NCBI GenBank assembly: GCA_037915955.1
Contig: JBAIYI010000094.1
Span: forward strand, 1-25,755
Source: Terriglobales bacterium
GTDB lineage: Bacteria > Acidobacteriota > Terriglobia > Terriglobales > Acidobacteriaceae
DNA length: 25,755 nt
Direction: 5' to 3'
Under the pieces are notes generated by a model. The model did not search any database and was not told where the DNA came from. It saw nothing but the letters and a program-made list of their open reading frames with translations. Numbering within the stretch: the first letter of the stretch is position 1; every line of letters starts with the position of its first letter. The position numbers were made by a program, and so were the translations under genes. This document shows positions 2 to 24,954 of this stretch, piece after piece.

Positions 2-280
2 GAACATTATGAGTCCGACCAGAAAGTCGTAGCCATCCTGCCCGATCGGGGTGACCGGTATTACGCCAACATCTACTCGCCCGACTTTATGCGCGAGAAG
101 AACCTGGTGGATGAAGTTGCCGCGGCATTTCCCAATCCGATTCGTTACGGCGTCGATGTAGCCCAGCGCTGGAGCTACGCGCCGATCCCGCACGAACGCC
201 CGACTGATTACACCGGCGACGTAAGCACGACTGAAGAATTCGCCCGCGATCTTGGACTGGAGGCAGTGCAGGTGTCATGA
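2..280 (+). CDS. 3' end of a PLP-dependent cysteine synthase/SbnA-like (fold type II) enzyme, truncated by the window edge
   Basis: Frame +2 is open from base 2: EHYESDQKVVAILPDRGDRYYANIYSPDF... The VVAILPDRGDRY segment is the typical C-terminal motif of cysteine-synthase-family enzymes. The stop overlaps the next start (ATGA, 277-280). The ORF track's 89..280 is only the tail. Confidence 0.8.
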   Translation, partial: EHYESDQKVVAILPDRGDRYYANIYSPDFMREKNLVDEVAAAFPNPIRYGVDVAQRWSYAPIPHERPTDYTGDVSTTEEFARDLGLEAVQVS

Positions 281-1542: not shown

Positions 1543-1545
1543 CTT

Positions 1546-2658: not shown

Positions 2659-2718
2659 CTGATTTTCCTCGTCGATCGACTCAAGGGTTACCTGAAGCGC
2701 AGAAAAAGGAGTCCCCTC

Positions 2719-9299: not shown

Positions 9300-9340
9300 T
9301 CAGCTTGCCGATACGGTTTCTTGTGGATCGGAGGACGAAA

Positions 9341-9919
9341 ATGCCGGGCGAAATCTCGAAACTACATTCACGACACTTGCGGCGCGCATGGAAGGAAGTG
9401 CAATCGGCCATCGCAGGAATGACTCCCGAGCAAATGACGTGGGCGCCGGAAGGGAAGTGGTCAGCTGCGAATTTGCTTGAGCATCTCTCGCTGGGCTTCC
9501 TCATTACCGTGAAGGCCTCCGGCGTGGTCCTGCGCCAGGAGAGCCCGGGGCTTCCTGAGGCCACGCGGAGCCAGCATTGGTGGACATTTCGGGTCATCAC
9601 GCTCGGGTACCTTCCCATGCGCGTAAAAGCACCCAGAATGGTTTGCCCAAGAGGACAGAGTCCGGAAGAAGCACTTACGGCGCTCATGGAGAACCTGGTG
9701 GAAATGGACCATCGTCTGCAGAAGTGTCACGAAAAATTTGGGACGAAGGTCGGCCTGCTGGCTCATCCGTATCTTGGGCCATTGACGGTAAATCAGTGGA
9801 GGAAGTTTCAGCTTTTTCACGTGCGCCGTCATATGAAGCAGATCTGGCAGCTGAGAAAGCAGATGGCGAGGGCGTCCACGGACGAAGCGGCTTCCCCGGT
9901 GCGGTCATCAGCAGCTTGA
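9341..9919 (+). CDS. DinB/DUF1569-superfamily protein (putative metal-dependent four-helix bundle), about 192 aa
   Basis: WSAANLLEHL and HPYLGPLTVNQWRKFQLFHVRRHMKQI match the DinB His pattern. GGAGG RBS precedes ATG 9341, so this start is preferred over the ORF-track start 9296. Confidence 0.8.
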   Translation: MPGEISKLHSRHLRRAWKEVQSAIAGMTPEQMTWAPEGKWSAANLLEHLSLGFLITVKASGVVLRQESPGLPEATRSQHWWTFRVITLGYLPMRVKAPRMVCPRGQSPEEALTALMENLVEMDHRLQKCHEKFGTKVGLLAHPYLGPLTVNQWRKFQLFHVRRHMKQIWQLRKQMARASTDEAASPVRSSAA

Positions 9920-9923
9920 AGAT

Positions 9924-9959
9924 GGTCCGCCGCTGGACATGGCAGTCCAGAAATGGACA
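9924..9959. promoter_or_regulatory. Tandem dyad site pair A (putative enhancer/UAS of a sigma54 activator)
   Basis: GGTCCG-CCGC-TGGACA (9924-9939) and AGTCCA-GAAA-TGGACA (9944-9959), 20-bp period, upstream of permease 1. Confidence 0.7.
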
Positions 9960-9990
9960 GTTTTCACCGATCTGCGGACCAAAACTTGCA

Positions 9991-10003
9991 TAACTTGTTG
10001 CTT
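9991..10003 (-). promoter_or_regulatory. IHF-like binding site
   Basis: Minus strand reads AAGCAACAAGTTA, one mismatch to WATCAANNNNTTR. It lies between pair A and a candidate -24/-12 element. Confidence 0.4.
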
Positions 10004-10028
10004 TTCAAAGCCCATACGTCTGCCTGAA

Positions 10029-10043
10029 TGGAGCGCAAACTGC
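10029..10043 (+). promoter_or_regulatory. Weak candidate sigma54 -24/-12 promoter for permease 1
   Basis: TGGAGCGCAAACTGC has GG-N10-GC but poor flanks. An alternative, CGGACCAAAACTTGCA, lies at 9975-9990. Confidence 0.3.
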
Positions 10044-10089
10044 GAGCTTAAAAGTGGGCCAAAACTGTGACCGGAATTGGAGATAGAAC

Positions 10090-12549
10090 GTGAGTACCCT
10101 GAGACAAGATATCCAGTACGCACTGCGGCAGATGCTGAAGAACCCCGGCTTTGCGCTCGTGGCGATCGTGACGTTAGCGTTGGGGATCGGCACCAACACA
10201 GCGATTTTCAGCGTGGTCAACGGCTGGCTCAGGCCATTGCCGGTCAAAGATCCCAACCGAGTGGTGGTATTGGCTGCACAGCAAAAGGGAGACACGCTGG
10301 GCATCTATTACTTCTCCTATCCGGACCTGGTTGATTTCCGCAAACAGGCGGCAACATTTTCTGACTTGTTTGCCTACGAGATTGGCCTGGGCGGTCTAAG
10401 CATAGAGGGCAAGGCAGAGCCCGTCGTATTCAGCTACGTGACAGGGAACTTCTTCTCGGCCCTGGGAGTTCAACCCGCCGCAGGCCGACTTTTTCTACCG
10501 AATGAAGGTGAACAGCCCGGCGCAACACCCATGGTGGTGCTGGGCTATTCGTATTGGCAGAAAAGGTTTTCAGGAGACATCGGCATTGTCGGAAAGCAAG
10601 TACGCTTAGATGGCAATGCGGCAGTCGTGATAGGAGTTGCCCCCAGAGGCTTCCACGGCGTGGCGCCGAATGTGGACATGCAGGCATACCTGCCGCTAAG
10701 CATGCTCGCGGGTGAGACTCGCGGAAACGGGCTGTGGACAGAGCGAGGACAGAGAACGCTGGCGGTGCTCGGAAGAGTCAAGGATAACGTTACACTTGCG
10801 CAGGCACAGAGTTCGGTAACTCTTGTCGCAAATCGGCTGGCCCTGGAATATCCAAAGACAGACGATGGAGTCAGCGTCACCGTGGTTCCAGAAAAACTCG
10901 CCCGCCCGGTTCCCAAGATGGCAAGTGCGATTCCTGTGATCGCAGGATTGTTTCTGGTGATGGCCGGAGTGGTGCTCGTGCTTGCGTGTATGAACGTGGC
11001 AAACCTGATGCTCGCGCGAGCCACGACTCGCCAAAAAGAGATATCCGTGCGAATGGCACTGGGAGCGAGCCGTGTCCGCGTTGTGCGGCAATTGCTGACG
11101 GAAAGCATCGTCCTTGCGCTTTTCAGCGGAATATCCGGTGTACTGCTGGGAATGTGGGCCAGTGGCGCAATAGGATCGATCAACCTGGGAACGAAACTCC
11201 CACTGGTGCTGGATTTCGGTTTGGATTGGCGCGTGTTCGCCTATAGCCTGCTGGCGGCGCTGGTGACTGGCGTGATTGTGGGCGCATGGCCAGCATTGCG
11301 CGCAGCCCGCGGTGGACTCAGCGCAGGACTGCAAGACGGAAGCCGCGGCGGATCAGCCAGCGCCAGCAGGGTTCGCGTGCGCAGCCTGCTGGTCGTCGCG
11401 CAGGTAGGCTGCTCTCTTATGCTGCTGGTGGTGGCGGCGCGATTTGTGCGCAGCCTTGATAAGGCACAGCACATGGCGCTCGGCTTTGAGCCGGAGAATG
11501 TGGTTAACGTGATGGTGGATCCACATCAGGTCGGGTACGACCAGACGCGGACAGTCGAGTTCTATCGTGAACTGGAACGGCGCGTGCGAGCGCTGCCCGG
11601 AGTGCAGTCCGCGAGCCAGGCATTCAGCGTCCCCATGGGTAATTACAACGACGGCAGCCCTGTCTATATCGAAGGTCAACCCCTGCCGCCGGGGCAACAG
11701 CCACCGCTGCTTTTCTTCAACAGAATTGGAACGGATTATTTTCAGACATTACGAACTTCGCTGCTTCGCGGACGCACCTTCACGGAAGCAGATAACGGCA
11801 GCGCACCCCTGGTGGCGGTTATCAACCAGGCCATGGCAGACCGCTTCTGGCCGAAAGAGGACGCAGTCGGGAAACGCTTCAGCATGAAGAGCGCCTCCGG
11901 ACCCTTCCTGCAAGTGATTGGCATCGCACATGACAGCAAGCTCTTCGGATACTTCTCCGGAGCGCTACCTTATTATTACGTTCCGTTTGACCAGAACTTC
12001 ACCTCAATGAGGATCCTGCAGGTGCGTTCGTCTGTGGCTTCGGAAACATTGATCTCGCAGCTCAAAGAACAGGTGCAATCGCTCGATCCGGAAATGCCCG
12101 TCTCTGATCTACAGACCATGCGTGAAGTCATGGAAGGCGGAAATGGATTTCTTGTATACCGGCTGGGCGCAGCCCTGACCGCGATCATGGGCATACTCGG
12201 GTTCGTTATCGCGGTGGTGGGTGTGTACGGAGTGGTCTCATTCGCAGCGGCTCAGCGCACGCGGGAAATCGGGGTACGCATGGCGCTTGGAGCCAGCAAA
12301 GGCAACATACTCAATCTCATCCTGGGGCAGGGTGTGCGGCTGATCACCATTGGGGCCATGCTGGGATTGATAGCTGCCTTTGGGCTGACCCGCGCAATGG
12401 CGAAACTGCTGGTAGGAATAAGTGCCGGCGATCCGGGAACGTTTGTTCCCGCTACATCGATCTTACTGCTGGTTGCGCTTGGCGCTTGTTACATACCCGC
12501 GCGACGCGCAATGCGGCTTGATCCAGTGGTTGCTCTGCGTCACGAGTAG
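10090..12549 (+). CDS. ABC transporter permease, duplicated MacB_PCD/FtsX type (ADOP-like), 819 aa
   Basis: N-terminal LRQDIQYALRQMLKNPGF...LALGIGTNTAIFSVVN; two FtsX repeats (RQKEISVRMALGAS and RTREIGVRMALGAS); C-terminal ARRAMRLDPVVALRHE; no Walker motifs. Confidence 0.93.
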   Translation: MSTLRQDIQYALRQMLKNPGFALVAIVTLALGIGTNTAIFSVVNGWLRPLPVKDPNRVVVLAAQQKGDTLGIYYFSYPDLVDFRKQAATFSDLFAYEIGLGGLSIEGKAEPVVFSYVTGNFFSALGVQPAAGRLFLPNEGEQPGATPMVVLGYSYWQKRFSGDIGIVGKQVRLDGNAAVVIGVAPRGFHGVAPNVDMQAYLPLSMLAGETRGNGLWTERGQRTLAVLGRVKDNVTLAQAQSSVTLVANRLALEYPKTDDGVSVTVVPEKLARPVPKMASAIPVIAGLFLVMAGVVLVLACMNVANLMLARATTRQKEISVRMALGASRVRVVRQLLTESIVLALFSGISGVLLGMWASGAIGSINLGTKLPLVLDFGLDWRVFAYSLLAALVTGVIVGAWPALRAARGGLSAGLQDGSRGGSASASRVRVRSLLVVAQVGCSLMLLVVAARFVRSLDKAQHMALGFEPENVVNVMVDPHQVGYDQTRTVEFYRELERRVRALPGVQSASQAFSVPMGNYNDGSPVYIEGQPLPPGQQPPLLFFNRIGTDYFQTLRTSLLRGRTFTEADNGSAPLVAVINQAMADRFWPKEDAVGKRFSMKSASGPFLQVIGIAHDSKLFGYFSGALPYYYVPFDQNFTSMRILQVRSSVASETLISQLKEQVQSLDPEMPVSDLQTMREVMEGGNGFLVYRLGAALTAIMGILGFVIAVVGVYGVVSFAAAQRTREIGVRMALGASKGNILNLILGQGVRLITIGAMLGLIAAFGLTRAMAKLLVGISAGDPGTFVPATSILLLVALGACYIPARRAMRLDPVVALRHE

Positions 12550-12587
12550 GCTGCGAACCTGCAACTCCCCCTGACGCGACTGGTGCA

Positions 12588-12641
12588 TTACGGCCCGGGA
12601 CGGTCAAAGCTGGCTGCTCCCGGGCCGTAACTTTCTTTTTT
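12588..12641 (+). terminator. Rho-independent terminator after permease 1, between convergent genes
   Basis: Perfect 13-bp stem TTACGGCCCGGGA (12588-12600) / TCCCGGGCCGTAA (12618-12630), followed by CTTTCTTTTTT. Confidence 0.8.
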
Positions 12642-12645
12642 CGCA

Positions 12646-14064
12646 TCATTGCGACTGCGCGCCGTTCCCATGGGCGACGATGCACTCCGGGATTTTGATT
12701 TCAGCTTCGCAACCGGAAACATCAACGCGATTGCGAAGAAGCAGGCTTCCGCCGTGCGCCTCCACGATCTGCCGGCACAGCACCAGACCTATTCCGGCCC
12801 CGCCTTCCTTGGTCGTATAAAACGGCACAAATAAATTGGATGGATCAAGAAGGCCGAGACCCTGATCGCGGACCCACAATTCGAGATCACTGCCCGTTTG
12901 CTTCCAACTCACTGTCACTAGCGGTTCATCCCGCTGTGACGCTTCGGGTCTGGCCAGCACTGCTTCGGTGGCGTTCTTGATGAGGTTAATTAAGACCTGC
13001 TCCAATTGATCAGGATCCAGGTTGACGGTGAGTTCCGGTCCGGGATCCAGTCCGACCTGCAGCCTGCATTCAAGCCCGGCAACCCGCTTGAGCAGCTTGT
13101 TCAGGCATACATCGCGGCGGGCAGGTGCAGGAAGCCGAGTGAGCTGGGCATAACTCTGAAGGAAGCGATTTAACGCTTCGGCACGCGTTCCAATCACTTC
13201 CAGTCCAAGATCAACGTCCTTGTGGATGCGGTCCGGCAGCGTGGTTTGCGAAAGGATCCTTGCAAGCGTGCGGGACACGGACTTGATCGGAGCCAGAGAA
13301 TTGTTGATCTCATGGCTCAAGACGCGGACCATGCGCTGCCATGCCTGACGCTCTTCCGCGCGTAGAGCTTCTGAAGCTTCCGAGAGCAAGATCAGCCTGT
13401 GAGGAATGCCGCTCTGGCGGAAGTGCGTACGGCGGACGATCCAACGCTTCTCCTGGCCATTTGAAAAGCGCGAGATGGTTTGCGAAGGCGGCCCTTCCAG
13501 CAGCTCGGCAATACCGAGATCGGCCGCGGTGCTGCTGATCGCTGTGGTTTCACGTATCCCCAAGAACCTGGCCGCGGCACGATTATGGAGTTGAAGGCGG
13601 CCGTCCATGGTGAATGCCATGATGACGTCATCCGCTTCCGAGATGACCTTACGCAGCAGGTTTTCGGCTTCCATGGTTCCCAGGCGCTCAGATTCAAGCG
13701 CGCGGGCGAGATTGTTGATTTCAATTGCCAGGTCGCCAAGAGCATCACCGGACAAGGCGCGTGTAGCGCGAAACGAAAAGTCTTCTTCCTTCACTGAGGC
13801 GACGACATTCGAGAGGACGCGCATGGCATTCACGACCCGATTGCGCGCGGAGAAGGCCAGCCCGAGCCAGAAGAGCCCGACAAATACAGTTCCCTCAATC
13901 TTATGGTCGAGAGCATAAGAGCCGGACCAGAGCAGAGCAAACGCCAGGACCCCACAAGGAAGCCCAGTGGCGAGAACGGAAAACAGCAGCCTTCGTTCGA
14001 AGGGTATGCTGGATGCCGGCTTATGCTTTCTCTTTTTTGACTGCGGAAGGAACATAGAGGCCAT
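12646..14064 (-). CDS. Membrane sensor histidine kinase (NtrY/NtrB-like, PAS-like central region), about 472 aa
   Basis: Two N-terminal TM segments; H-box LSHEINNSLAPI; N-box EQVLINLIKNA; G1 DQGLG; F-box LFVPFYTTK; G2 GAGIGL. Start placed at ATG 14064 (MASMFLPQ; alternative 14055) rather than 14175. Confidence 0.92.
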   Translation of the reverse strand: MASMFLPQSKKRKHKPASSIPFERRLLFSVLATGLPCGVLAFALLWSGSYALDHKIEGTVFVGLFWLGLAFSARNRVVNAMRVLSNVVASVKEEDFSFRATRALSGDALGDLAIEINNLARALESERLGTMEAENLLRKVISEADDVIMAFTMDGRLQLHNRAAARFLGIRETTAISSTAADLGIAELLEGPPSQTISRFSNGQEKRWIVRRTHFRQSGIPHRLILLSEASEALRAEERQAWQRMVRVLSHEINNSLAPIKSVSRTLARILSQTTLPDRIHKDVDLGLEVIGTRAEALNRFLQSYAQLTRLPAPARRDVCLNKLLKRVAGLECRLQVGLDPGPELTVNLDPDQLEQVLINLIKNATEAVLARPEASQRDEPLVTVSWKQTGSDLELWVRDQGLGLLDPSNLFVPFYTTKEGGAGIGLVLCRQIVEAHGGSLLLRNRVDVSGCEAEIKIPECIVAHGNGAQSQ

Positions 14065-15517
14065 GTTTTTCCATGCGCCGGTAGAAGGTTCCCCTGCTGA
14101 GTCCCAGGATCTCCGCAGCCTGGCTAACGTTGCCATTGAAGCGCGCGAGCGCCTTGCCGATGAGCAAGGCCTCAACCTGTTCCAGGCTCATATCTCCGAG
14201 CCCTGTGGCATCAGCGACGCTAGCCGTAGTGAGTCCCAGATGACTGGCCTCAATCCTTTCGTCACGGCACATAAGAACACCACGTTCGATGGTGTGGTCC
14301 AGCTCCCGCACATTGCCCGGCCATGAGTAATCGAGGAGCTTTTTCATTGCTTCCGGAGTGAAACCCTCAATCTGCTTGCCGTAACGCGTGCTGTACTTAT
14401 GCAGAAAGTGCGCCGCCAACGCGGGTATGTCTTCCTTCCGCTCGCGGAGGGCGGGCAGGTGAATTTCTACAGTATTTAAACGGAACAGGAGGTCTTCGCG
14501 GAAATCGCCGGCCGCGCAGGCAGCCTTGAGGTCAGCGTTGGTGGCGGAAATAACACGAACATTCACCTTTTGAGTCCGGGACGAACCGACCCGCTCCATT
14601 TCTCCGGTTTCCAGAACACGAAGAAGGCGGGCCTGCTGCCGCATGGGAACATTGGCTATTTCATCCAGGAAGAGGGTGCCGCCATCGGCCATCTCAAAGC
14701 GGCCGATGCGATCGGTACGCGCGTCAGTGAATGCGCCGCGGACATGCCCGAAGAGTTCGCTTTCGAAGGTGCCTTCCGGAAGACCGCCTGTGTTCACGGT
14801 GATGAGAGGTTTTTCTGCCCGGCGCGAGACGGCATGGAGCATCTGAGCAACGACTTCCTTGCCGGTGCCGTGCTCGCCGGTGATGAGCACGCTGGCGTCC
14901 GAAGGACCGAATTGGGCAATTGCATCGGCCACGGGACGCATGGAGGGCGCCTGGGCAATGAATGTGGTGCGCCCGCGGTTCCGCATCAGATGATTTTCTG
15001 CCGCCAGTCGCTGCCCCTGACGAAGGGCGCGGTAGAGTTCGGCATGCACGGTGATGGTAGCGACCAGCCGCTCATCATCCCACGGCTTCTGGATGAAGTC
15101 ACGCGCACCGCGACGCACCGCGGCAACCGCTAAATCAATGGTTCCCCATGCGGTCATCACGATAATCGGAATCTGACTGTCAATTTCGCGGATACGATCC
15201 AGAAGCTCGATGCCTTCGCGTCCCGAGGTGGTATCGCGCGCGTAATTCAGGTCGAGCAGCAATGCATCGTATTCGCGCAGTGTAATGGACTCGAGCACGA
15301 CCTGAGGCGAGCGAACGCAGTCAACCTCGAAGCCATGGGAGCGAAAGAGCAACTTCAGAGCATCGAGAACGGCAGCCTGATCATCGGCCACCAGGATGCG
15401 GTAGGGGTGTTCGCTGATACGCACGCTGCTGTCCTCTCTTGCGTAAACAGGCATTGCACCGATTGAGAGGAGATCTGCGGCGAGGTCAAATGGGTATAGC
15501 GTTCCCATTGTCATCAC
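14021..15517 (-). CDS. Sigma54-dependent response regulator (REC-AAA+-Fis HTH); start uncertain (15517 is coupled to the permease 2 stop, or 15454)
   Basis: REC motifs ILVADD, LLDLNY, MTAWG and FIQKPW; Walker A GEHGTGKE; ESELFGHVRGAFTDA; TLFLDEI; WPGNVREL; HTH GNVSQAAEILGLSRGTFYRRM. Confidence 0.95.
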   Translation of the reverse strand: MMTMGTLYPFDLAADLLSIGAMPVYAREDSSVRISEHPYRILVADDQAAVLDALKLLFRSHGFEVDCVRSPQVVLESITLREYDALLLDLNYARDTTSGREGIELLDRIREIDSQIPIIVMTAWGTIDLAVAAVRRGARDFIQKPWDDERLVATITVHAELYRALRQGQRLAAENHLMRNRGRTTFIAQAPSMRPVADAIAQFGPSDASVLITGEHGTGKEVVAQMLHAVSRRAEKPLITVNTGGLPEGTFESELFGHVRGAFTDARTDRIGRFEMADGGTLFLDEIANVPMRQQARLLRVLETGEMERVGSSRTQKVNVRVISATNADLKAACAAGDFREDLLFRLNTVEIHLPALRERKEDIPALAAHFLHKYSTRYGKQIEGFTPEAMKKLLDYSWPGNVRELDHTIERGVLMCRDERIEASHLGLTTASVADATGLGDMSLEQVEALLIGKALARFNGNVSQAAEILGLSRGTFYRRMEKHGLYVPSAVKKEKA

Positions 15518-17949
15518 TCGCTCCTCAGCACGGCCATCGGCTCAATCGCCGTTGCACGAACAGCGATCAGCAGGCTGGTCACGAGAGCAATGCCGGCAAG
15601 AACAAGCGCAGCGCCAGCCAGCGAGCTCCATGTTATGCCGACCGTATTATAGATTACGAGTTTCAGCGTGTTTGCGAGTAGAACGCTCGCCAAAGCGCCG
15701 AGCGCGATTCCAATCAGTACCATACCGACTCCCTGCCTGATAATCAGGCTGATGATGTGAGCGCGCCTGGCGCCCACTGCCACGCGCATGGCAATCTCAC
15801 GCGTGCGCAAGACGAGGTGATAACTGAGCAGCCCGTAAAGGCCAACCGCGGTGAGTAACAGGGCGAAAACCCCAAAGATACCGGTAAGAGACACGTAAAA
15901 ACGAGGTCGAGCCAGCGAACCAGAAAGGACCTCCCGGAGAGGCCGAAGCGAGACGAGAGCAAGGTCAGAATCAGCACTTGCCAGCGGATGGCTGAGCGCC
16001 TGATAAAGATTGGCGCGACTGCTGGAACGGATCACGACAGACGTGGGAAACAGCAGATTTACGAAAACGGAAATTTTATCGGGGGTCTGTTTCAGACAAA
16101 TGAACGATGTGGGCGGAGCAGGTCGATCCAGCCCAGCTTCATGGACGTCAGCGACCACACCAACCACTTCGCGGGGAACGTCAGAGAATTGAGAGCCTAG
16201 ATCACTCCGCAGCGCGATGAACTTTCCCACGGCGGATTGATTCGGCCACCAGCGCCGAGCCAGAGTCTCATTCACGATAATCACCGGGCGGCCACCCTGG
16301 TCGTCGCGATCCGAGAAAGTGCGCCCGGTCCGAACGGGGATTCGCATTGTCTGGAAATATCCCGGGGTGATCACGCGCAGCTGGGATTCGCCATAGATCG
16401 TCTTGTCCTGTGCGTCCACAGGATAGAGCGGAAGGCCGAGCCCTTGTTCGAGGGGTAATCCATTGATTGTGGCGACGCTCTCCACGCCTGGCACCTGGGT
16501 CAAGGCATCGCGAATCTGATCAATCAACTGCACGGTGGCAGGCGTGGTGGTGTAGCGCCCGTCAATGAGCGAGATTTGCGCGACAGAAACCCCTTCCGCC
16601 TCAAAACCCGGCGAGACTGCATGGAGACGTAGAAACTGCGTCAACAGGGATGCTGTGCCCGCGAGCAGGCACAGCGTGAGCGCGGTCTGGGCAGTCACGA
16701 GAGCGCTCCCCAGCCGGGTCTGCTGGACCGTGGAAGTGCCCGAGAGAGGTGATTGTCGCAGTACGTCCTGGATGTGCACACCGGACATACGCAATGCAGG
16801 CGCTATGCCAGGCAGAACGGCTGCCGCGGCGGAGATCAACAAGATGAACAAGAGGACGTTGCCATCGATGGCTATGGCAGAGCTGAGGGGCAGGTCAGCC
16901 GGAGCCAGCCACTTGACGACGGGGATCAACTCCTTGCCCGCAATGGCGCCGAGGATACCTCCAGAAACCGCGATGAGCACGGCCTCCATCAGCCCCACGC
17001 TGATCAGGCGCCACCTGCTGGATCCAAGGGCAGCGCGAATGGCGAATTCATGACGCCGGGACGCTCCACGGACGGTAAAACACAAAGCCAGATTTGTGCA
17101 GGTGATAAGCAGAACAAATACGACTGCCCCGAATAACGAATAAAGACCGCGCCGGGTACCATCGACGATGAAGGATTGGAGTTCCTCAGGAACAAGGGCG
17201 GTTTCCGACGCCATGGAACGCAACGGATAAGTCGACCGGTATTCCGCAGATGTCGCCAGCTCCTGACGGGCCTGTTCTGCAGTGACGCCACCCTTCAGGC
17301 GGGCGATTACCCGATATTCGTTTCCCGCATCAGCGTTTGCCGGCGTGAGCCGCAATGGTATCCAGAGGTCCGCGGAGGGAAATGACCGAAACTTTTGCGG
17401 CATGATGCCGACGACAGTGTAGGGTTCGCCACTGATCCTAACGGAGGAGCCGATCACCGCAAGGTCTTTGTTGTAATCCTGGACCCAGGCGCCATAGCTC
17501 AACAGGACAGCGCGCGGGCCGCCGGGCTGGTCCTCTTCAGGAAGAAAGTCGCGGCCACGGTAAGGTGCTGCGCCAAGCGTCCGGAAGAAATTCAGAGATA
17601 CCTTCTGCACGTGCCTGTACTGAGGAGTTCCTATTCCGGCAACATTTACTCCACTATCCCGCGCTGCGGCAATGCTGGAAAAGAAGTGACCGCGCTCTTT
17701 CAGCTCGAAAAACGCAGACGCGGAGATATCGCGGGTAAGGCGACCTTCTGGGCCATACCAGGTCAAGATCACCAGCCGTTCAGGCTCCGAATAAGGGAGA
17801 GGGCGGAGCAATGCGGCATTGATGACACTGAACACAACCACGTTCGCGGCGATACCGATCGCGAGCGTCAAAACAGCCATCACCGTGAACCCCTGAGTAC
17901 GCTGAAGCGAACGCAGAGAATATGTGATGTCCTGTAAAAAACTGTGCAT
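15514..17949 (-). CDS. Second duplicated ABC permease (ADOP-like); likely start ATG 17949 (MHSFLQD...), ORF-track start 18006
   Basis: FLQDITYSLRSL...LTLAIGIAANVVVFSVINA; RRHEFAIRAALGSS; RTREIAMRVAVGA; C-terminal RATAIEPMAVLRSE; stop overlaps the regulator start. Confidence 0.92.
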   Translation of the reverse strand: MHSFLQDITYSLRSLQRTQGFTVMAVLTLAIGIAANVVVFSVINAALLRPLPYSEPERLVILTWYGPEGRLTRDISASAFFELKERGHFFSSIAAARDSGVNVAGIGTPQYRHVQKVSLNFFRTLGAAPYRGRDFLPEEDQPGGPRAVLLSYGAWVQDYNKDLAVIGSSVRISGEPYTVVGIMPQKFRSFPSADLWIPLRLTPANADAGNEYRVIARLKGGVTAEQARQELATSAEYRSTYPLRSMASETALVPEELQSFIVDGTRRGLYSLFGAVVFVLLITCTNLALCFTVRGASRRHEFAIRAALGSSRWRLISVGLMEAVLIAVSGGILGAIAGKELIPVVKWLAPADLPLSSAIAIDGNVLLFILLISAAAAVLPGIAPALRMSGVHIQDVLRQSPLSGTSTVQQTRLGSALVTAQTALTLCLLAGTASLLTQFLRLHAVSPGFEAEGVSVAQISLIDGRYTTTPATVQLIDQIRDALTQVPGVESVATINGLPLEQGLGLPLYPVDAQDKTIYGESQLRVITPGYFQTMRIPVRTGRTFSDRDDQGGRPVIIVNETLARRWWPNQSAVGKFIALRSDLGSQFSDVPREVVGVVADVHEAGLDRPAPPTSFICLKQTPDKISVFVNLLFPTSVVIRSSSRANLYQALSHPLASADSDLALVSLRPLREVLSGSLARPRFYVSLTGIFGVFALLLTAVGLYGLLSYHLVLRTREIAMRVAVGARRAHIISLIIRQGVGMVLIGIALGALASVLLANTLKLVIYNTVGITWSSLAGAALVLAGIALVTSLLIAVRATAIEPMAVLRSE

Positions 17950-18027
17950 TGCGCCGTGGCATCTCCTGGAACCCACTGCCGCCGTGGAGTACTCACTCTG
18001 CTCCACGGCGAGTGCTCTCTTTCAGCA

Positions 18028-18043
18028 GGCACTCGAAGGGCCA
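18028..18043 (-). promoter_or_regulatory. Candidate sigma54 -24/-12 promoter for the permease 2-regulator-kinase operon
   Basis: Minus strand TGGCCCTTCGAGTGCC has GG-N10-GC, about 50 bp downstream of pair B. Confidence 0.55.
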
Positions 18044-18093
18044 CACATAACTACTGATGATTCAAGGGATTCGGGCTGAACGGACACCTATTT

Positions 18094-18129
18094 TGTCCGC
18101 GGGCGGACACCCCTGTCCAGTGCTGGACA
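18094..18129. promoter_or_regulatory. Tandem dyad site pair B (best match to consensus)
   Basis: TGTCCG-CGGG-CGGACA (18094-18109) and TGTCCA-GTGC-TGGACA (18114-18129), both perfect dyads, 20-bp period. Confidence 0.8.
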
Positions 18130-18242
18130 GTAAAAAATCTGAGCGTCCAATGGTGGCCACTGCGGTGATTTCCACCGGACCTCCGCTGCCGCGGCCACAC
18201 GCACTGGCAAACCCGGTGCTTTCTCGTTTACTCCCTCGCAAA

Positions 18243-18278
18243 TGTTCGCACGTGGACATGGCAATCCAGCTCTGGACA
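18243..18278. promoter_or_regulatory. Tandem dyad site pair C, upstream of lanA-lanKC
   Basis: TGTTCG-CACG-TGGACA (18243-18258) and AATCCA-GCTC-TGGACA (18263-18278), 20-bp period, with the same TGGC spacer as pair A. Confidence 0.65.
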
Positions 18279-18542
18279 ACCAGAACCCCGCTGGATCGAT
18301 TCACAAGGTGCAAAGAATCGGAATGTGAGTGCGCAAATTTGCACTCAGGAAACATCGGTTTTTGCGAGAGGAAAAGAGGGACCGGCATGGGTGCTCTGCC
18401 CGGACGGCAAAATTAGGAAACACATAGCTTTGCGCTGTTTTTGCGAATCCCGAAATAGAAAACTCGGAAGCAGTGGAGAGCGTGTGATCTTCGATTCTCT
18501 GAAACTGTATTCGTGGTTGTCACAAAGGGTGTGTGACGGATT

Positions 18543-18558
18543 TGGCAGAGATCATGCT
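18543..18558 (+). promoter_or_regulatory. Sigma54 -24/-12 promoter of lanA-lanKC
   Basis: TGGCAGAGATCATGCT: GG at 18544-45 and GC at 18556-57 with exactly 10 nt between, about 50 nt upstream of the precursor ATG. Confidence 0.7.
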
Positions 18559-18608
18559 ATTCAGATCAGCGGGCCCCCAAAACCTTGAGATCAATCAGGA
18601 GAACAGCC

Positions 18609-18746
18609 ATGACACGAGTATTGATGCTTCAGAAAATGCATTCCAACAGCAGCACCTCCGAGTGCGGAAACCTGTTTGGCAGCGCCGTAAGCACCATCTG
18701 CCCGGAAGGTCCGAACGCCGCGGAGAGCCCGTTTCAGATGGAGTAA
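18609..18746 (+). CDS. lanA: Class III lanthipeptide precursor, 45 aa: MTRVLMLQKMHSNSSTSECGNLFGSAVSTICPEGPNAAESPFQME
   Basis: AGGAG RBS at 18597-18601, ATG 18609, TAA 18744-46. The leader motif VLMLQ resembles the class III (I/V/L)LxLQ motif. It has S25-x2-S28-x2-C31 and S12-x2-S15-x3-C19 motifs and sits directly upstream of lanKC. It is below the ORF-track length cutoff. Confidence 0.88.
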   Translation: MTRVLMLQKMHSNSSTSECGNLFGSAVSTICPEGPNAAESPFQME

Positions 18747-18755
18747 TCCAGGAAA

Positions 18756-18796
18756 GGGCCCTCTGACGATATTCCCCCATTTGCGACAGAGGGCCC
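18756..18796 (+). other. Stem-loop between lanA and lanKC (mRNA stabiliser/attenuator candidate)
   Basis: GGGCCCTCTG (18756-65) pairs perfectly with CAGAGGGCCC (18787-96); no U-tract follows. Confidence 0.65.
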
Positions 18797-18819
18797 GAAG
18801 CCGGCAAGAGGCACGACGC

Positions 18820-21588
18820 ATGCGGAGCAGACCCAATCCGTTATTTCGACTCCTGGACCACGATTACCACGAGACCTTCACAGCGTATAAGCCTCGCACG
18901 GCAGATTTCTTCGACGCGATTTCCCGGAAGCTGCCCAGTGGATGGTCCATTCAACGCAGCGGAATCTGGTTCCACTGTGGTTCACAAAACAACAATGTTC
19001 CGCAGCAGGGATGGAAGATTCACGTTTCGGCGACACCTGCCAGCGCGGGTGCGATCCTGGAGCAAGTGACCACGGTGCTCTTCAGGCGTTGTGATACGGA
19101 TTTCAAATTCGCGCTGGACATGAACACACTTTCCCTGATGAACAGCAAGAACTGGTCGCGCGGGAAATCAGGAAAGTTCATCACAATCTATCCGCAGACT
19201 ACTGCAGATTTCCGGCAACTCATTGAAGAGCTATACCAGGCGACGCGAACATTCTGCGGTCCTTATATTCTGTCTGACCATCGTTACAAAGACAGCCGGG
19301 TTGTCTTCTTTCGCTATGGTGGCATGCGCCTGCATGAAACCCTGAATGTGAAGGGGGAACGCACGCCCATGCTGATAGCTCCTGACGGGACAGAAGTTCC
19401 CGATGAGCGCACTCCGTATCCGGTGGTACCTGCATGGGAGAATCCGCCTATTCCGGTTGAGGATCCGTCCCAACCCGATCCTCCAACCTGCACGATGAAG
19501 CAAGGCCGGTATGAGATCGAAGATGTGCTGGATTTCTCCAATGCCGGCGGTGTGTACCGCGCATTGGATACACACACCGGCCGCAAGGTGGTGATCAAGG
19601 AAGCGCGGCCATGCGTGAATGCAACCCCGGACGGATACGATGCGGTGGAATCGCTCAAGAAAGAATACCGGCTGCTCAACGTACTGAAAGAGGCCGGCAT
19701 TGCTCCTGCACCCCTGGAACTGTTTCAGGAATGGGAGCATTGGTTTCTGGTGGAAGAATTCGTGGCAGGCCTTTCACTGGCGGCACACTCGGCGCAACAC
19801 AACGTCCTGCTACGCACCAGGCCATCACAAAAGGATTTTGAGGACTGGTATGAGAGATTCCGCGGCATATGCAGCGGCCTGGCACGAATCTTGAAGACCC
19901 TGCACGACCATGGGATCGTGTTTGCGGATCTCTCTATCAACAACCTGATTGTTGCCGACTCAGATGGGGAGCTCAAGATCATTGATTTTGAGGGAGCTAC
20001 CCAGGCAGGAGTTGACCGGCCAAGCTCGCTGTACACGCCCGGCTTTGTCTCTGAGAAGAGGCTGAAAGGCGCAAGCGCCGGGTTCGATGACGATTACTAT
20101 TCTGCGGGCGCCGTGCTGATGGCCTGTCTGTTCCCAGTCAATGCCCTGATCCACCTCAATGGGCAAGCGAAGCGGACCTTTATTGAATGCATAAATAAGG
20201 ATACGCGGTTCCCCAAGCCGGTCACGGACATGGTGCTCCAGTTGATGGGGTCGGAACCGGAGAACCGGCCAGATTCCGCGACAATGATTGAAGTCATCGA
20301 GCATAATCCAACCCTTGCTCCGCCAGCTGCTCAGGTGCGTCCAAAATATGAACATGAGGCTTTACTCTCATCGATGGTGGCTCACCTGGAGCACTCGGCC
20401 AGCTATTGGCGCGATGACCGGCTCTTCCCCGCGGATCCCAGGGTATTCACGACTAACCCGCTGAGCCTGGCCTATGGAGCAGCCGGAGTGGGTTATTCAT
20501 TGAAGAAGGTCACGGGCAAAAGTTCACCGCTCATCATGGACTGGATCCTGCGGCACAAAATCAGCCGTGAAGATTACGCGCCAGGACTGTATGTCGGACT
20601 GTCAGGAATAGCGCTGGGCCTTCTTGAAATGGGTGCGCTCGATGACGCGAGAAAAATATTCCAGCTCACGTTTGAGCATCCTCTGCTGCACAAAGATCCC
20701 GGAATTTTCTACGGCACAGCGGGCTGGGGTATGACGTGCCTGCGTTTCTTTCTTGAAAGCGGAGATGAACTTTACCTGAAAAAAGCGGAAGCGGCTGGTC
20801 GTGCCCTGATGCAACGGGTGCACGTCTCTCCGGCCGGATATTCCTGGGAAGCTGCGAGCGAAGCACAACTCGGTTTCGCACACGGCGCCAGCGGCATTGC
20901 CCTGTTCCTGCTTTATCTCTCCTTCGCCACGCACAATTTTGAGTTTCTGGAAGCGGGACGCAAGGCGCTTGAGTTCGACTTAAGTTTTGCGGTGACAACG
21001 CAGGACGGCGGCTCTTCCTGGCGACAGGCAGTCCATGGGCAGTCGCCGGTTTTTCCGTACTGGCGATACGGGAGCGCGGGCATCGGAACCGCCGCACTGC
21101 GTTTTGCCAAGGTCCTCGACGATCCGATATATCGTGCCGCGCTGGAGAAAATATTCATCGATACCGACCGCCAGTATGTGGTGATGCCTGGGAAATTTCT
21201 TGGGCAGGCCGGGTTGGCAGACTTTGCCCTTGATATGTTCGAGTTCACGGGCAGCACAAGATATCTGAAATCCGCCTTGCGGGCGAGCGAAAGCATGGAG
21301 CGGTTCCGCGTAGAGAGACCGCAGGGCACGGCGTTTCCCGGTGACATGCTCTCACGGTTGTGCTGCGATTACGGCACGGGAAGCGCGGGCATCGCGCTGG
21401 TATTCAACCGGCTGGCTCACGGCGAACGGAATGACTTCCTGCTGGACTGCCTGCTGGAGCAGGCCGGCATTCTTGATAAACCACAACGGAACAGAAGAAG
21501 CCTCTCTGCTGCCCTGCTTGCCGAGGACTATTCCAATCACGATTCAGATTCGGGCGACGACAGGCCACCGCTGATCTCAGTAGCGTGA
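18820..21588 (+). CDS. lanKC: Class III lanthipeptide synthetase (lyase-kinase-cyclase), about 922 aa
   Basis: Lyase motifs QGWKIHVSA, GKFITIYP, GPYILSD and FFRYGG; kinase motifs FSNAGGVY, VVIKEARP, FADLSINNLIV and IIDFE; cyclase motifs GFAHGASGIA, PYWRYGSAGIG and CCDYGTGSAGI, lacking WCHG/CHG Zn ligands. AAGAGG RBS precedes ATG 18820, preferred over TTG 18781, which lies inside the hairpin. Confidence 0.93.
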   Translation: MRSRPNPLFRLLDHDYHETFTAYKPRTADFFDAISRKLPSGWSIQRSGIWFHCGSQNNNVPQQGWKIHVSATPASAGAILEQVTTVLFRRCDTDFKFALDMNTLSLMNSKNWSRGKSGKFITIYPQTTADFRQLIEELYQATRTFCGPYILSDHRYKDSRVVFFRYGGMRLHETLNVKGERTPMLIAPDGTEVPDERTPYPVVPAWENPPIPVEDPSQPDPPTCTMKQGRYEIEDVLDFSNAGGVYRALDTHTGRKVVIKEARPCVNATPDGYDAVESLKKEYRLLNVLKEAGIAPAPLELFQEWEHWFLVEEFVAGLSLAAHSAQHNVLLRTRPSQKDFEDWYERFRGICSGLARILKTLHDHGIVFADLSINNLIVADSDGELKIIDFEGATQAGVDRPSSLYTPGFVSEKRLKGASAGFDDDYYSAGAVLMACLFPVNALIHLNGQAKRTFIECINKDTRFPKPVTDMVLQLMGSEPENRPDSATMIEVIEHNPTLAPPAAQVRPKYEHEALLSSMVAHLEHSASYWRDDRLFPADPRVFTTNPLSLAYGAAGVGYSLKKVTGKSSPLIMDWILRHKISREDYAPGLYVGLSGIALGLLEMGALDDARKIFQLTFEHPLLHKDPGIFYGTAGWGMTCLRFFLESGDELYLKKAEAAGRALMQRVHVSPAGYSWEAASEAQLGFAHGASGIALFLLYLSFATHNFEFLEAGRKALEFDLSFAVTTQDGGSSWRQAVHGQSPVFPYWRYGSAGIGTAALRFAKVLDDPIYRAALEKIFIDTDRQYVVMPGKFLGQAGLADFALDMFEFTGSTRYLKSALRASESMERFRVERPQGTAFPGDMLSRLCCDYGTGSAGIALVFNRLAHGERNDFLLDCLLEQAGILDKPQRNRRSLSAALLAEDYSNHDSDSGDDRPPLISVA

Positions 21589-21679
21589 TCTATGTTCCGC
21601 AATCTCAAGCTCCAGAAAAACCGAATGACTTTTGTTTAACGGCTGGACAGCGGCGCCAGGTTCAATTTCTAAAGGCTTT

Positions 21680-21715
21680 TGTCCGTGAGTGGATACTTGC
21701 GTCCGAAGCTGGACA
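21680..21715. promoter_or_regulatory. Tandem dyad site pair D, upstream of the second sigma54 activator
   Basis: TGTCCG-TGAG-TGGATA (21680-21695) and CGTCCG-AAGC-TGGACA (21700-21715), 20-bp period. Confidence 0.7.
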
Positions 21716-21765: not shown

Positions 21766-21781
21766 TGGCAAGCTGCTTGCC
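21766..21781 (+). promoter_or_regulatory. Sigma54 -24/-12 promoter (near-palindromic)
   Basis: TGGCAAGCTGCTTGCC closely matches TGGCAC-N5-TTGC, about 50 bp downstream of pair D. Confidence 0.75.
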
Positions 21782-21920: not shown

Positions 21921-23570
21921 ATGGCGACCCCACGCCTTGCTTACGATCAAGAGTCTTTGTTCAACGGAGTTTCCATTTTGTTCCGCGGACTGCAATACCC
22001 GAGCCAGGCAGAGGACACCATCACCGCCTCGTTCGAATCGGTGGCGCATGGACTGGCGGCGGTACGTGGCGGAGTATTTCTGGTCCGGCATGAGCCTGAC
22101 TCAATCCGGCTGGAAACGCTTTGCCAAACCGGACTGCAGGCGAGTGAGATCGCTGCGATTGAATCTGGTCCGACCAGCGGGATCAGTGTGGCGGACCGCA
22201 TATGGAAGGCATACACAGAAAAATCCAAGACAGAAGAGAAAGGCGCTGAGCAGCCCGCGGAAGCAATCCAAAACATATCGCCGGGGCTGCACGTGCTTTC
22301 CGCAGTGGTGCTTGATCCGGTGCTGGACGTGCCTGCCGCCATCCTGCACGTGGAGCGCGAGGAAGATACGAACCCGGAGCTGCAGGCGGTGGCCAGCAAA
22401 TGGCTGGGTCTTTACACATTGGCTCTTGGCCAGCTGGTGCGGCTGGGATTTCCAAGGATTCTGTGCGCGGAGGAGAAGGACTCGCGCCCGTTAGAGATCA
22501 AGGCACCGGAAGACGCGCCGGAAATCGTTGGCGTGTCTCTGCAGACGCAAGCTCTGCGGCAGGAGCTACATGATATCCATATTCCTGCGGCCAGCGCTCC
22601 TGACCCCGATCCCATCCTGATCCTTGGAGAAAAGGGTACAGGAAAAGATCTGGTGGCCCGCTACATCTATTCCTACAGCCTGCGCCGCAACAAGCCGTAT
22701 GTCGCCGTGAACTGCGCTGAAATCACAGACGAACTGGCTACCGCGCGTTTCTTCGGGCACAAGAAGGGATCGTTCACCGGATCGCTGGCGAACGAGCCGG
22801 GACTGTTTCGCGCGGCAGATCACGGAGTCCTGTTCCTGGATGAGATCGGCGACCTTTCTCTGAAGGCGCAGGGAACGCTGCTGCGGGTTCTGGAAAACCG
22901 CACGGTGGTGCCACTGGGTGAGACGCGAGAGCAGCGCATCGATGTGCAGGTAATCCTGGGGACCAACTGCGATCCGGAACGGGCCGTGGCGGAAGGCCGC
23001 ATGCGGCCGGACCTGCTTGACCGTTTCCGCACGCAGGCCATTCGGCTGGCGCCTTTGCGCGAGCGGCCCTGGGACATTCCGGCGCTGGTGCGGCATTTCA
23101 TCGCTTATAACGAGAAGCGGACACAGAAGACTATCCTCAGCCTGCATGCCGACGTATTAAAGATGATGGTGGGTTATTCATGGCCGGGCAACGTGCGAGA
23201 ACTGGCGCGCGTGTGCTCGCTCCTGATCACGCACGTGAAATCCGGCAGTCCAATTGATACCGCGCTGTTCACGCGCCTGATTCCCTACATCGCGAGACAG
23301 GAATGGAACCCGAAGGCGGGCGCGATGCTGGTGGGAGACATCCCCATGCGTGAAGCGCTGGAGACCTTTGGCCGCGAACTTATCCTGGCCAGGCTGCGCC
23401 AGCACAACTGGAACATCAAGTCGGCGCGCGAGAGCCTTGGTCTGCCGAAAACGACATTCCACCGCTACACGCGTGCGCTGGGAATCGCAGGCACGTTGCG
23501 GGAGGAAGCCGCGAACCTGGACCTTTCTCAGGCCAAGGCGCATGCGGCTGGATTTTCCGCAATGGGTTGA
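21921..23570 (+). CDS. Sigma54-type AAA+ enhancer-binding protein with divergent (possibly GAF-like) N-terminal domain and HTH, about 549 aa
   Basis: Walker A GEKGTGKD; RFFGHKKGSFTGS (GAFTGA variant); VLFLDEIGD; YSWPGNVREL; HTH NWNIKSARESLGLPKTTFHRY. Start placed at ATG 21921 after GAGAGGGTG; the ORF track uses 21855. Confidence 0.9.
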   Translation: MATPRLAYDQESLFNGVSILFRGLQYPSQAEDTITASFESVAHGLAAVRGGVFLVRHEPDSIRLETLCQTGLQASEIAAIESGPTSGISVADRIWKAYTEKSKTEEKGAEQPAEAIQNISPGLHVLSAVVLDPVLDVPAAILHVEREEDTNPELQAVASKWLGLYTLALGQLVRLGFPRILCAEEKDSRPLEIKAPEDAPEIVGVSLQTQALRQELHDIHIPAASAPDPDPILILGEKGTGKDLVARYIYSYSLRRNKPYVAVNCAEITDELATARFFGHKKGSFTGSLANEPGLFRAADHGVLFLDEIGDLSLKAQGTLLRVLENRTVVPLGETREQRIDVQVILGTNCDPERAVAEGRMRPDLLDRFRTQAIRLAPLRERPWDIPALVRHFIAYNEKRTQKTILSLHADVLKMMVGYSWPGNVRELARVCSLLITHVKSGSPIDTALFTRLIPYIARQEWNPKAGAMLVGDIPMREALETFGRELILARLRQHNWNIKSARESLGLPKTTFHRYTRALGIAGTLREEAANLDLSQAKAHAAGFSAMG

Positions 23571-23641
23571 GGCGGAGTTTTTCCGTGGTGACTGGCTATG
23601 ACGCCGTCACCCGGCAGCAACGAACGTTTGGAGGTGAAAAG

Positions 23642-23974
23642 ATGACGGGACCGTGGTTTGATCCGAATAAATATTCCTGGATTTGTGGAGCAGCATACGG
23701 CGTTGCAGCGGTAATCCTGGGCGCCGTAGCGTTTTATCTTGTGCCTAAAGGGCGGGCGAAGCGTGCGGTAGTGAGCGCATGGGTGCTGCTGTGGAGCATT
23801 GCGATCGGTCTCATTATTATTGGGCTGGTGGCCGTGGCGGACCGGCAGCCCTGGGGAGTGTGGTACGGGATCCTTCTGCCGGGGATCGTGGGCACGGCGG
23901 TGCTGGGAGGGAACCTGCTGATTATTCTGAAGCGATACAAGGAAGCCGAACAGCGAGGGTTGCCGCGGTATTGA
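23642..23974 (+). CDS. Small membrane protein of unknown function, about 110 aa, about 3 TM segments
   Basis: GGAGGT RBS before ATG 23642; three hydrophobic stretches (AAYGVAAVILGAVAFYLV; AVVSAWVLLWSIAIGLIIIGLVAV; GVWYGILLPGIVGTAVLGGNLLIIL). Confidence 0.75.
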   Translation: MTGPWFDPNKYSWICGAAYGVAAVILGAVAFYLVPKGRAKRAVVSAWVLLWSIAIGLIIIGLVAVADRQPWGVWYGILLPGIVGTAVLGGNLLIILKRYKEAEQRGLPRY

Positions 23975-24190
23975 GCGTTGGCACTTCAGAACGCACGCTG
24001 ATTACCCGAACTGCGGTTCTCGGGCAGCTTCAGGTTCTATAGTGCGGAGAAGAAGGGCCTGTCAGGATCGAAGTTAATCGTCTCCCACTCCACCCTTTTC
24101 TTCCGCACGCCGCAAACCCCGTGCGGCGGCCCCAGAAAAGAGTACGGCACCCGATCCAGGTGGAGAAGGACAGATGCAAAGCCCGAAAGG

Positions 24191-24457
24191 ATGGGTTACC
24201 CACGGAGCCATAAAGAGAAGATCAAGATCTGGAAGTTTTACAAACGCATGGAGGAACTCGGCGAAATCGAGCCGATTACGCAGTTGGAGGGGAGCATGGA
24301 AAGTGAAATCACGCCGCTCGTGAGAAACTCGCGAGCGGCCTTTTTGTTTGGTGTTATCGCTGAGATTTCACGACGCCCATTGATCATTGATTCAGAGCGA
24401 TCGCTTGCAGTTTCAGGAAAATCTCATTTTGAATTATCTAGCGCACAAAATCATTAA
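24191..24457 (+). CDS. Possible short hypothetical protein, 88 aa
   Basis: ORF-track call with a charged N-terminal half (HKEKIKIWKFYKRMEELGEIEP); no recognisable motif and a weak RBS. Confidence 0.25.
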   Translation: MGYPRSHKEKIKIWKFYKRMEELGEIEPITQLEGSMESEITPLVRNSRAAFLFGVIAEISRRPLIIDSERSLAVSGKSHFELSSAQNH

Positions 24458-24658
24458 AGTCTTGTCTGCATTGGCGTTTTCTTCGCCATTCAGTTCGCTG
24501 TGCTTCCGCATGTTCTCTTGCGTGCAAGGCAGTTCGTTATGCGAGCAAATCACAACGCCATGTGACCCAGAACACCGCAGCTACTCAGGCAGCGGTAATA
24601 ATTTCGGAATGTAGTTGTTCGGTCCCTCCGGCGACCACCAGTCTAGGGAGTGTAGTAA

Positions 24659-24805
24659 ATGGTAAGTTGTATATTCCTTGTGGCTGTTTTCTCCGCTTTG
24701 GCATCCCTCACCTTTGCGAAACAACCTCATTCGCCAATCAACATCCCCTCTGTGCTGATTGGCATCCTGGAATGCCTTTTGCCACCTCCACTGCAGTCCA
24801 AGTAG
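24659..24805 (+). CDS. Possible small secreted peptide, 48 aa: MVSCIFLVAVFSALASLTFAKQPHSPINIPSVLIGILECLLPPPLQSK
   Basis: GGGAG 8 nt upstream of the ATG; hydrophobic N-terminus ending in L-T-F-A, resembling a signal peptide. Confidence 0.3.
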   Translation: MVSCIFLVAVFSALASLTFAKQPHSPINIPSVLIGILECLLPPPLQSK

Positions 24806-24954
24806 CGCTATCAGTTGGTTGATGGCTGCGCGCCTGGATTGCTGACGACGGTATGTCGTGCTCGCATGGACCACGGGTAAAAATCTGCCGGCAGTGCTCG
24901 GCCGCAGGACGCGTGTGCGAACCGCGCTGGCCTCTGCAAGCAAGGAGATAGAAA

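Follow-up and report, generated by a model that had tools for sequence, protein, structure and literature searches.

The window analysed here, a stretch of 25,755 nucleotides from a Terriglobales bacterium, is an entire contig (C4; JBAIYI010000094.1) of an assembly (GCA_037915955.1) of 4.2 Mb in 918 contigs that is 75% complete. It includes the genes of a class III lanthipeptide, two permeases of the ADOP family, an NtrC-type two-component system and a second regulator gene. Four of its intergenic regions carry a tandem pair of 16-bp palindromes (dyads; TGTCCR-N4-YGGACA), and these pairs are, in all likelihood, the upstream activator sequences (UASs) of the NtrC-type response regulator (RR) encoded among them. 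The locus as a whole reads as a well-supported, purely computational sigma-54 regulon with apparent positive autoregulation. The genes concerned are given below. G020 and L026 are the closest relatives of the locus (RR 85-87% identical).

10090-12549, plus strand: permease 1, an ADOP-family duplicated MacB/FtsX permease (TIGR03434, 870 bits, above the cut-off; Pfam MacB_PCD and FtsX).
12646-14064, minus strand: histidine kinase (two transmembrane helices joined by some 10 residues, then weak matches to PAS and HisKA, and HATPase_c); translation could start at 14064 or at 14136.
14021-15517, minus strand: NtrC-type RR, a bacterial enhancer-binding protein (bEBP) with a receiver domain (REC), an AAA+ domain with a GAFTDA loop and a Fis-type helix-turn-helix (HTH) domain (HTH_8); proposed binder of the dyads.
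15514-17949, minus strand: permease 2, ADOP family; first gene of the permease 2-RR-kinase operon, its stop codon overlapping the RR start codon.
18609-18746, plus strand: lanA, a 45-aa class III precursor (leader VLMLQKM, core SAVSTICP, C-terminal FQME; 71% to G020 by tblastn).
18781-21588, plus strand: lanKC, a class III lanthionine synthetase (NF038151, 760 bits, cut-off 575; RamC_N, Pkinase and LANC_like).
21921-23570, plus strand: activator 2, a bEBP (GSFTGS loop, weak Fis-type HTH, GAF-like N-terminus), present in the closest relatives only.
23567-23974, plus strand: orf135, a 135-aa protein with three transmembrane segments; its start overlaps the activator 2 stop, and it is conserved with activator 2 in G020 and L026.

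The dyads are located as follows.

9924-9959, no strand: pair A, GGTCCGCCGCTGGACA and AGTCCAGAAATGGACA at a 20-bp period, upstream of permease 1; begins 5 bp past the stop codon of a DinB-like gene; orthologous pairs in G020 and L026.
18094-18129, no strand: pair B, both dyads exact; the proximal one is centred 59.5 bp away from the permease 2 promoter's GG.
18144-18159, no strand: extra weak dyad with 2 mismatches, 30 bp past the second dyad of pair B.
18243-18278, no strand: pair C, of the two central pairs the one nearer to lanA.
21680-21715, no strand: pair D, upstream of activator 2.

An earlier note on this DNA had reported eight 16-mers in four intergenic pairs with 20-bp spacing. All eight were found where it had placed them, with 0 to 2 mismatches to TGTCCR-N4-YGGACA (none at 18094 and 18114; one at 9924, 9944, 18243, 21680 and 21700; two at 18263); the spacing is exactly 20 bp from start to start in each of the four pairs, and all four pairs are intergenic. 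The string TGGACATGGCA(G/A)TCCAG that the note saw in pairs A and C is present, but other genomes do not conserve the 4 bp between the dyads. Exact copies of the motif number two, for 0.01 expected from shuffled sequences. A scan of the whole assembly (at most 2 mismatches per site, spacing 17-44 bp) returned pairs A to D only, plus the 30-bp neighbour at 18144; all dyad pairs detected in this genome thus sit on one contig. Four control palindromes of like composition gave no pair at 20 bp in the whole assembly. Single sites with at most 1 mismatch occur 27 times elsewhere for the real pattern and 23 times for the reversed control pattern. An equal frequency of the motif in coding DNA, which had been proposed as a ground for abandoning it, does not tell against it here, because single copies occur at control frequency and the four intergenic tandems account for the whole signal.

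Orthologues of lanKC at 50-64% identity are present in many genomes of the genus. The window was compared with 11 of these loci (12 in total, all within Candidatus Angelobacter, Terriglobia). The genes conserved over the 12 loci are lanA, lanKC, permease 2, the RR and the kinase. The lanA open reading frame (ORF) is 41-48 aa long from a conserved leader methionine in 12/12 loci; in these precursors the leader reads (V/I)LxLQ(K/R)L and the core S-x-x-S-x-(I/V)-C, with Pro usually the next residue, and the C-terminus is F(Q/E)M(E/Q) in the majority of loci. An LxLQ-type leader and a Ser/Ser/Cys core are what a class III precursor should have; the core found here, S-x2-S-x2-C, is one residue shorter than the textbook labionin motif, S-x2-S-x3-C.

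Tandem dyads accompany the lanKC gene in 11/11 orthologous loci and in 0/2 loci with more distant lanKC paralogues (40-43%). Of the 30 pairs in the 12 loci, 27 have a spacing of 20 bp; it is 21 bp in two others and 19 bp in one. Their consensus is TGTCCA-N4-TGGACA. The arms are near-invariant (T3, C4, C5, G12, G13 and A14 in 56-60 of 60 sites), whereas the four inner bases and the 4-bp linker are free to vary. This pattern is, to judge from the columns, the footprint of a protein-binding site and not that of a repeat element. G020 and L026 match the window in the gene positions of all four pairs. Across the more distant loci, pairs are constant at two promoters, that of lanA-lanKC and that of permease 2-RR-kinase; both are kept whether the two units are divergent or co-directional (G008).

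Candidate -24/-12 promoters (GG-N10-GC elements) were scored against TGGCAC-N5-TTGCW. The maximum is 20, and the value is a simple consensus score only.

10029-10044, plus strand: permease 1 promoter, TGGAGC-N5-CTGCG; score 15.5; 78.5 bp from pair A; predicted start about 10054.
18028-18043, minus strand: permease 2-RR-kinase promoter, TGGCCC-N5-GTGCC; score 17; predicted start about 18017; minus-strand equivalents in 6 other loci.
18543-18558, plus strand: lanA-lanKC promoter, TGGCAG-N5-ATGCT; 273.5 bp from pair C, the same distance as in G020; predicted start about 18569.
21766-21781, plus strand: activator 2 promoter, TGGCAA-N5-TTGCC; score 18; predicted start about 21792.

Most pairs are followed by a GG-N10-GC element that faces the downstream gene with a score of at least 17 of 20. 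The earlier note had placed one after each pair. This holds for pairs B (18043-18028, minus strand) and D (21766-21781), but pair C has no adjacent element, and for pair A the weak element at 10029-10044 has to replace the one at 9975-9990. The former aligns column for column with TGGCCAGA(A/G)AGATGCT of G020 and L026. The latter (CGGACC-N5-TTGCA, 24.5 bp from pair A) has the higher score and was rejected: it is unconserved in these two relatives. A lanA-type element (score 17-20) is found in 12/12 loci, 108-275 bp from the nearest pair, and the conserved precursor methionine lies 59-88 nt past its first base in every locus. The long spacer between pair C and the lanA promoter is restricted to the three genomes with activator 2; a search of this 270-bp spacer for an activator 2 site gave no conserved dyad in the three-way alignment. 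A scan of three intergenic regions for sigma-70-type promoters gave nothing conserved above shuffle level.

In pairs B and D, the centre of the promoter-proximal dyad is 59.5 bp from the first G of GG; for the activator 2 orthologues of G020 and L026 the distances are 60.5 and 59.5 bp. The 14 short-range distances (59.5 three times, 60.5, 68.5, 69.5, 71.5, 78.5, 79.5, 80.5, 82.5 twice, 86.5 and 91.5) cluster at 59.5 + n x 10.5 bp (R = 0.63-0.64; p about 0.002 against a uniform null, 0.011 after close orthologues are collapsed), the values not being independent of each other. Such helical phasing is suggestive and would fit face-of-helix constraints.

Between pairs B and C, a terminator-like hairpin with a T-run is present on the plus strand (18201-18220). 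It is possibly an insulator between the divergent units, or due to chance. A promoter candidate in the same place (18205-18220, TGGCAA-N5-GTGCT) was rejected: it is unconserved in other loci and is part of the hairpin (18201-18219).

The RR has the three domains of an NtrC-type activator: a receiver (PF00072 at 1.5e-22) with readable DD, D, T and K positions, an AAA+ domain (PF00158 at 2.1e-63) with Walker A GEHGTGKE, Walker B LFLDEI and the loop GAFTDA, and an HTH_8 domain (1.3e-14). The kinase (HATPase_c) belongs to the same operon, its gene overlapping that of the RR at the latter's end. The RR scores under the equivalog cut-off of every named NCBIfam regulator and therefore belongs to no named regulator family. 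It is the only conserved gene of the 12 loci with a DNA-binding domain. Its orthologues (70-87% identical) share the HTH signature SRGTFYRR and a basic tail; a paralogue at 60-66% has SRGALYRR or SRSALYRR instead.

Dyads and RR orthologues occur together in a sample of 61 genomes of the genus, where a tandem match was defined as at most 3 mismatches over 36 bp. RR identity is bimodal in this sample (71-100% in 15 genomes, at most 66% in the others). All 15 genomes with an RR orthologue have 1-6 tandem matches. Among those without it, 11/45 have 1-2 isolated matches, mostly with 3 mismatches and belonging to two other recurring site types. One genome (G004) has three dyad pairs, but its contig stops before the RR gene. 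The reversed control pattern gave no tandem match in all 61 genomes. The assembly encodes about 19 bEBPs and contains rpoN (Sigma54_DBD, 152 bits, at G000:C741; the gene is cut by the contig end). Contig C741 also holds the RR paralogue that is 64% identical to the RR (9077-10426).

The sites, their uniqueness in the assembly, their conservation, the promoters, the RR domains, the co-occurrence and rpoN were thus all obtained by computation. They favour the proposal of the earlier note that the local GAFTDA regulator would act as the sigma-54 activator of the lanthipeptide operon, of both permeases, of its own operon and of a second activator. The second-tier activator of that proposal is indeed preceded by a dyad pair and a promoter, but it is a lineage-specific add-on.

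The following sequence of events is proposed. The kinase would phosphorylate the receiver domain of the RR. One RR dimer would bind each 16-bp palindrome through the C-terminal Fis-type HTH; because 20 bp is about two helical turns, the two dyads of a pair lie on the same face of the DNA. Dimers on paired dyads would nucleate an active AAA+ oligomer (ring), which, by DNA looping, would remodel the sigma-54 holoenzyme at -24/-12 promoters 60-275 bp away. Open complexes would then form at four units: lanA-lanKC, permease 2-RR-kinase, permease 1 and activator 2-orf135. The last unit would be a second tier feeding a probably ligand-sensing (GAF-like) bEBP in this lineage. The circuit would be positively autoregulated, because the RR operon itself carries a target pair. 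Binding and activation are what we infer from the sequence, and the feedback loop is deduced from the architecture only.

Other proteins could in principle read the dyads. The most obvious one within the window is activator 2, whose architecture (GAF-AAA+-HTH) is like that of NifA and NorR. NifA-type UASs are TGT-N10-ACA, of which TGTCCR-N4-YGGACA is a subset; the N-terminus of activator 2 is GAF-like by language-model features, its best NCBIfam match is NorR (below the cut-off), and its putative recognition helix KTTFHRY shares a TF pair with RGTFYRR of the RR. The motif thus fits the NifA type formally, but activator 2, the only GAF-like bEBP here, is absent from most genomes that keep the dyads: the gene is found in 2/11 related loci and its N-terminal domain in 1/9 relatives searched over the whole genome, whereas dyad pairs are present in all those loci. 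Activator 2 is therefore not the general binder. With a dyad pair in front of its own gene, the best reading is that it is itself a target, which leaves this explanation very improbable. In the three genomes that encode it, activator 2 could bind the same dyads besides the RR. The ubiquitous paralogous NtrC-type regulator (G000:C741:9077-10426, 64% identical) might also read the dyads, alone or with the RR, and the locus would then answer a housekeeping signal. Its HTH is near-identical (SRGALYRR or SRSALYRR against SRGTFYRR), a related tandem site with a sigma-54 promoter (G000:C646:623-658) is kept genus-wide with or without the local RR, and in other Acidobacteriaceae three loci with paralogous RRs contain TGTCC-N6-GGACA pairs that match well, one of these being followed by an ADOP permease. 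However, multi-copy canonical palindromic pairs are found only in genomes with an orthologue of the local RR, and in the genus-wide site the second arm differs and is asymmetric; a reading by the paralogue is judged unlikely in the extreme, if a shade less so than one by activator 2. The same low probability is given to operators of an unrelated factor encoded elsewhere (a repressor or a nucleoid-associated protein), the proximity of sigma-54 promoters being coincidental. Against such a factor, no other DNA-binding gene is conserved over the 12 loci, the placing of the sites, 60-275 bp upstream of a promoter and with no overlap, suits activation, they are in helical phase with the -24 element, and their presence follows that of the RR orthologue. 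Chance similarity or a dispersed repeat without regulatory role is effectively refuted: 0.01 exact matches are expected, control patterns gave 0 pairs, and over the 12 genomes only the arms are conserved, in flanks that are not alignable.

Several points weigh against the local RR as the reader of the dyads, or against the regulon as drawn. One of the promoters, that of permease 1, scores weakly (15.5 of 20). Another, that of lanA, is far from pair C (273.5 bp), which has no element next to it, and no consensus site for integration host factor was found between the two. The RR loop, GAFTDA, differs from the canonical GAFTGA by one substitution. A paralogue of the RR (60-66% identity, near-identical HTH) is present in every genome and could cross-bind. 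The co-occurrence of RR and dyads is a pattern and not a formal test, and its independence is overstated because the genomes are close kin. Further sites may exist, because the assembly is only 75% complete. The locus sequence was found in soil DNA metagenome runs only and in no RNA runs.

With the local RR as the preferred binder, the regulon seems to extend further in the relatives. There, extra dyad pairs with strong -24/-12 elements (scores 18-20) are found upstream of other genes: further ADOP permeases; an AraC-type regulator; operons led by a NusG paralogue, one of them continuing with a Lant_dehydr_C gene; an MbtH-like gene with an M28 peptidase; and an operon with a TubC_N/NAD_binding_4 reductase of the nonribosomal peptide synthetase (NRPS)/polyketide synthase type. 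The pairs before the NusG-led operons, the MbtH-like gene and the reductase operon are the following.

L106-L112: distal dyad pairs in relatives (G020:C26, G021:C210, G008:C35, G021:C87, G002:C90, G002:C109).

In these relatives, the RR seems, from the genes behind the pairs, to coordinate several natural-product functions, often together with a second-tier regulator.

Outside the window there is a fifth, related tandem site (G000:C646:623-658), made up of TGTCCATTCCTGAAAC and TGTCCGTTTTCGAACA with a 4-bp linker between them; some 90 bp from it is a strong sigma-54 element, TGGCAC-N5-GTGCA. The site is probably a target of the ubiquitous RR paralogue, because near-identical sites recur in many genomes without a lanKC-linked RR. 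In other genera of the Acidobacteriaceae, three loci with paralogous RRs at 62-66% (L033, L080 and L085) have single TGTCC-N6-GGACA tandem pairs; the pair of L080 is directly upstream of an ADOP permease. There are hints here of a wider link between this RR family, the motif type and ADOP permeases.

The histidine kinase is co-transcribed with permease 2, which is of the MacB/FtsX type, and looks, from its predicted topology, like an intramembrane-type sensor. Loci with RRs at 70-87% identity (the window, L013, L014, L018, L020 and L026) have kinases at only 33-36%, and this includes loci with nearly identical lanA cores: the sensor evolves at a far higher rate than the other parts of the module. 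This divergence does not obviously track the peptide; the peptide-induced circuit suggested in the earlier note therefore stays speculation. A broader reading is that the ADOP permease, the loop-less kinase and the sigma-54 RR form a self-inducing sensor and export (or immunity) module for the lanthipeptide, the RR being the master switch of several natural-product clusters. This reading is tentative and more probably wrong than right. If true, the module would be the first defined function for the 'orphan' ADOP permease family and the first sigma-54-wired quorum-type circuit of a peptide that is made by ribosomes and modified after translation (RiPP).

The remainder of the window was annotated as follows. 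Positions 277-9919 code for an ATP-grasp ligase, a beta-eliminating lyase, a major facilitator superfamily transporter, an NRPS (C-A-T-C) and the DinB-like protein. The NRPS-DinB operon (4086-9919) has its own promoter beyond the contig start. The N-terminal 220 residues or so of activator 2 (21921-22640) have no Pfam match and are GAF-like, as in NorR/NifA-type activators, by language-model features (score 0.96). At 24767-24782 there is a sigma-54-like element (TGGAAT-N5-TTGCC) with no dyad pair nearby; the ORF at 24955, some 175 bp downstream of it, has an N-terminus that resembles a signal peptide. This element could be a target of activator 2; a search of 23900-25000 for repeats that might be activator 2 targets gave nothing convincing.

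To our knowledge, Acidobacteriota hold many silent natural-product clusters, and we know of almost nothing on how these are switched on. The present analysis gives a complete, testable cis-regulatory code: a 16-bp dyad, 20-bp tandems, -24/-12 promoters with their positions, and the regulator named. Since a sigma-54 promoter stays silent as long as its activator is missing, supplying RpoN together with an RR that is phosphomimetic or lacks its receiver would be a direct route to lanthipeptide expression in a host. The regulon would also tie the ADOP permeases, a large, uncharacterised acidobacterial family, to peptide production, which provides a concrete hypothesis for their role.

Tandem dyad enhancers are known in the NtrC family: NtrC at glnAp2; AtoC at atoDAEB, with two adjacent 20-bp sites; ZraR; DctD. 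The locus resembles these systems: a REC-AAA+-HTH_8 regulator is encoded next to its kinase, a pair of palindromes sharing one face of the DNA precedes a -24/-12 promoter, and the regulator is predicted to control its own operon. It differs in its new dyad (TGTCCA-N4-TGGACA), its tight, fixed 20-bp period, its GAFTDA loop and its targets, a RiPP operon and ADOP permeases instead of nitrogen, acetoacetate or metal genes. Known regulators of lanthipeptide operons, NisRK and SpaRK (class I, OmpR type) and RamR (class III-like SapB operon, NarL type), are not sigma-54 activators. In these systems too, the biosynthetic genes have a kinase/regulator pair as neighbours, which activates the precursor operon, and transport or immunity genes are part of the regulon; however, those regulators use the housekeeping sigma factor, whereas the regulator of this locus is a putative sigma-54 activator.

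Bce-type modules of Firmicutes (BceAB-BceRS) sense peptide antibiotics. They share with the locus an FtsX/MacB-type permease with large extracytoplasmic domains, co-transcribed with a two-transmembrane kinase that is almost without external loop. In contrast to them, the locus has an NtrC-type and not an OmpR-type regulator and a fused, duplicated ADOP permease, and no ABC (ATP-binding cassette) ATPase gene was found among the genes of the window; it is thus at most an analogue of a Bce-type sensor, not a member of that group. In myxobacteria, bEBPs (sigma-54 activators) switch on natural-product gene clusters; the present case differs in the phylum (Acidobacteriota), in the compound class and in having a defined cis-code common to several operons. 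A literature search gave nothing that links lanthipeptides mechanistically, or ADOP permeases, to sigma-54 or enhancer-binding proteins, and a search on the motif gave nothing relevant. The mechanism is ordinary, that of a classical NtrC-family enhancer; the combination of regulator, motif and cargo is undescribed and unusually cleanly defined.

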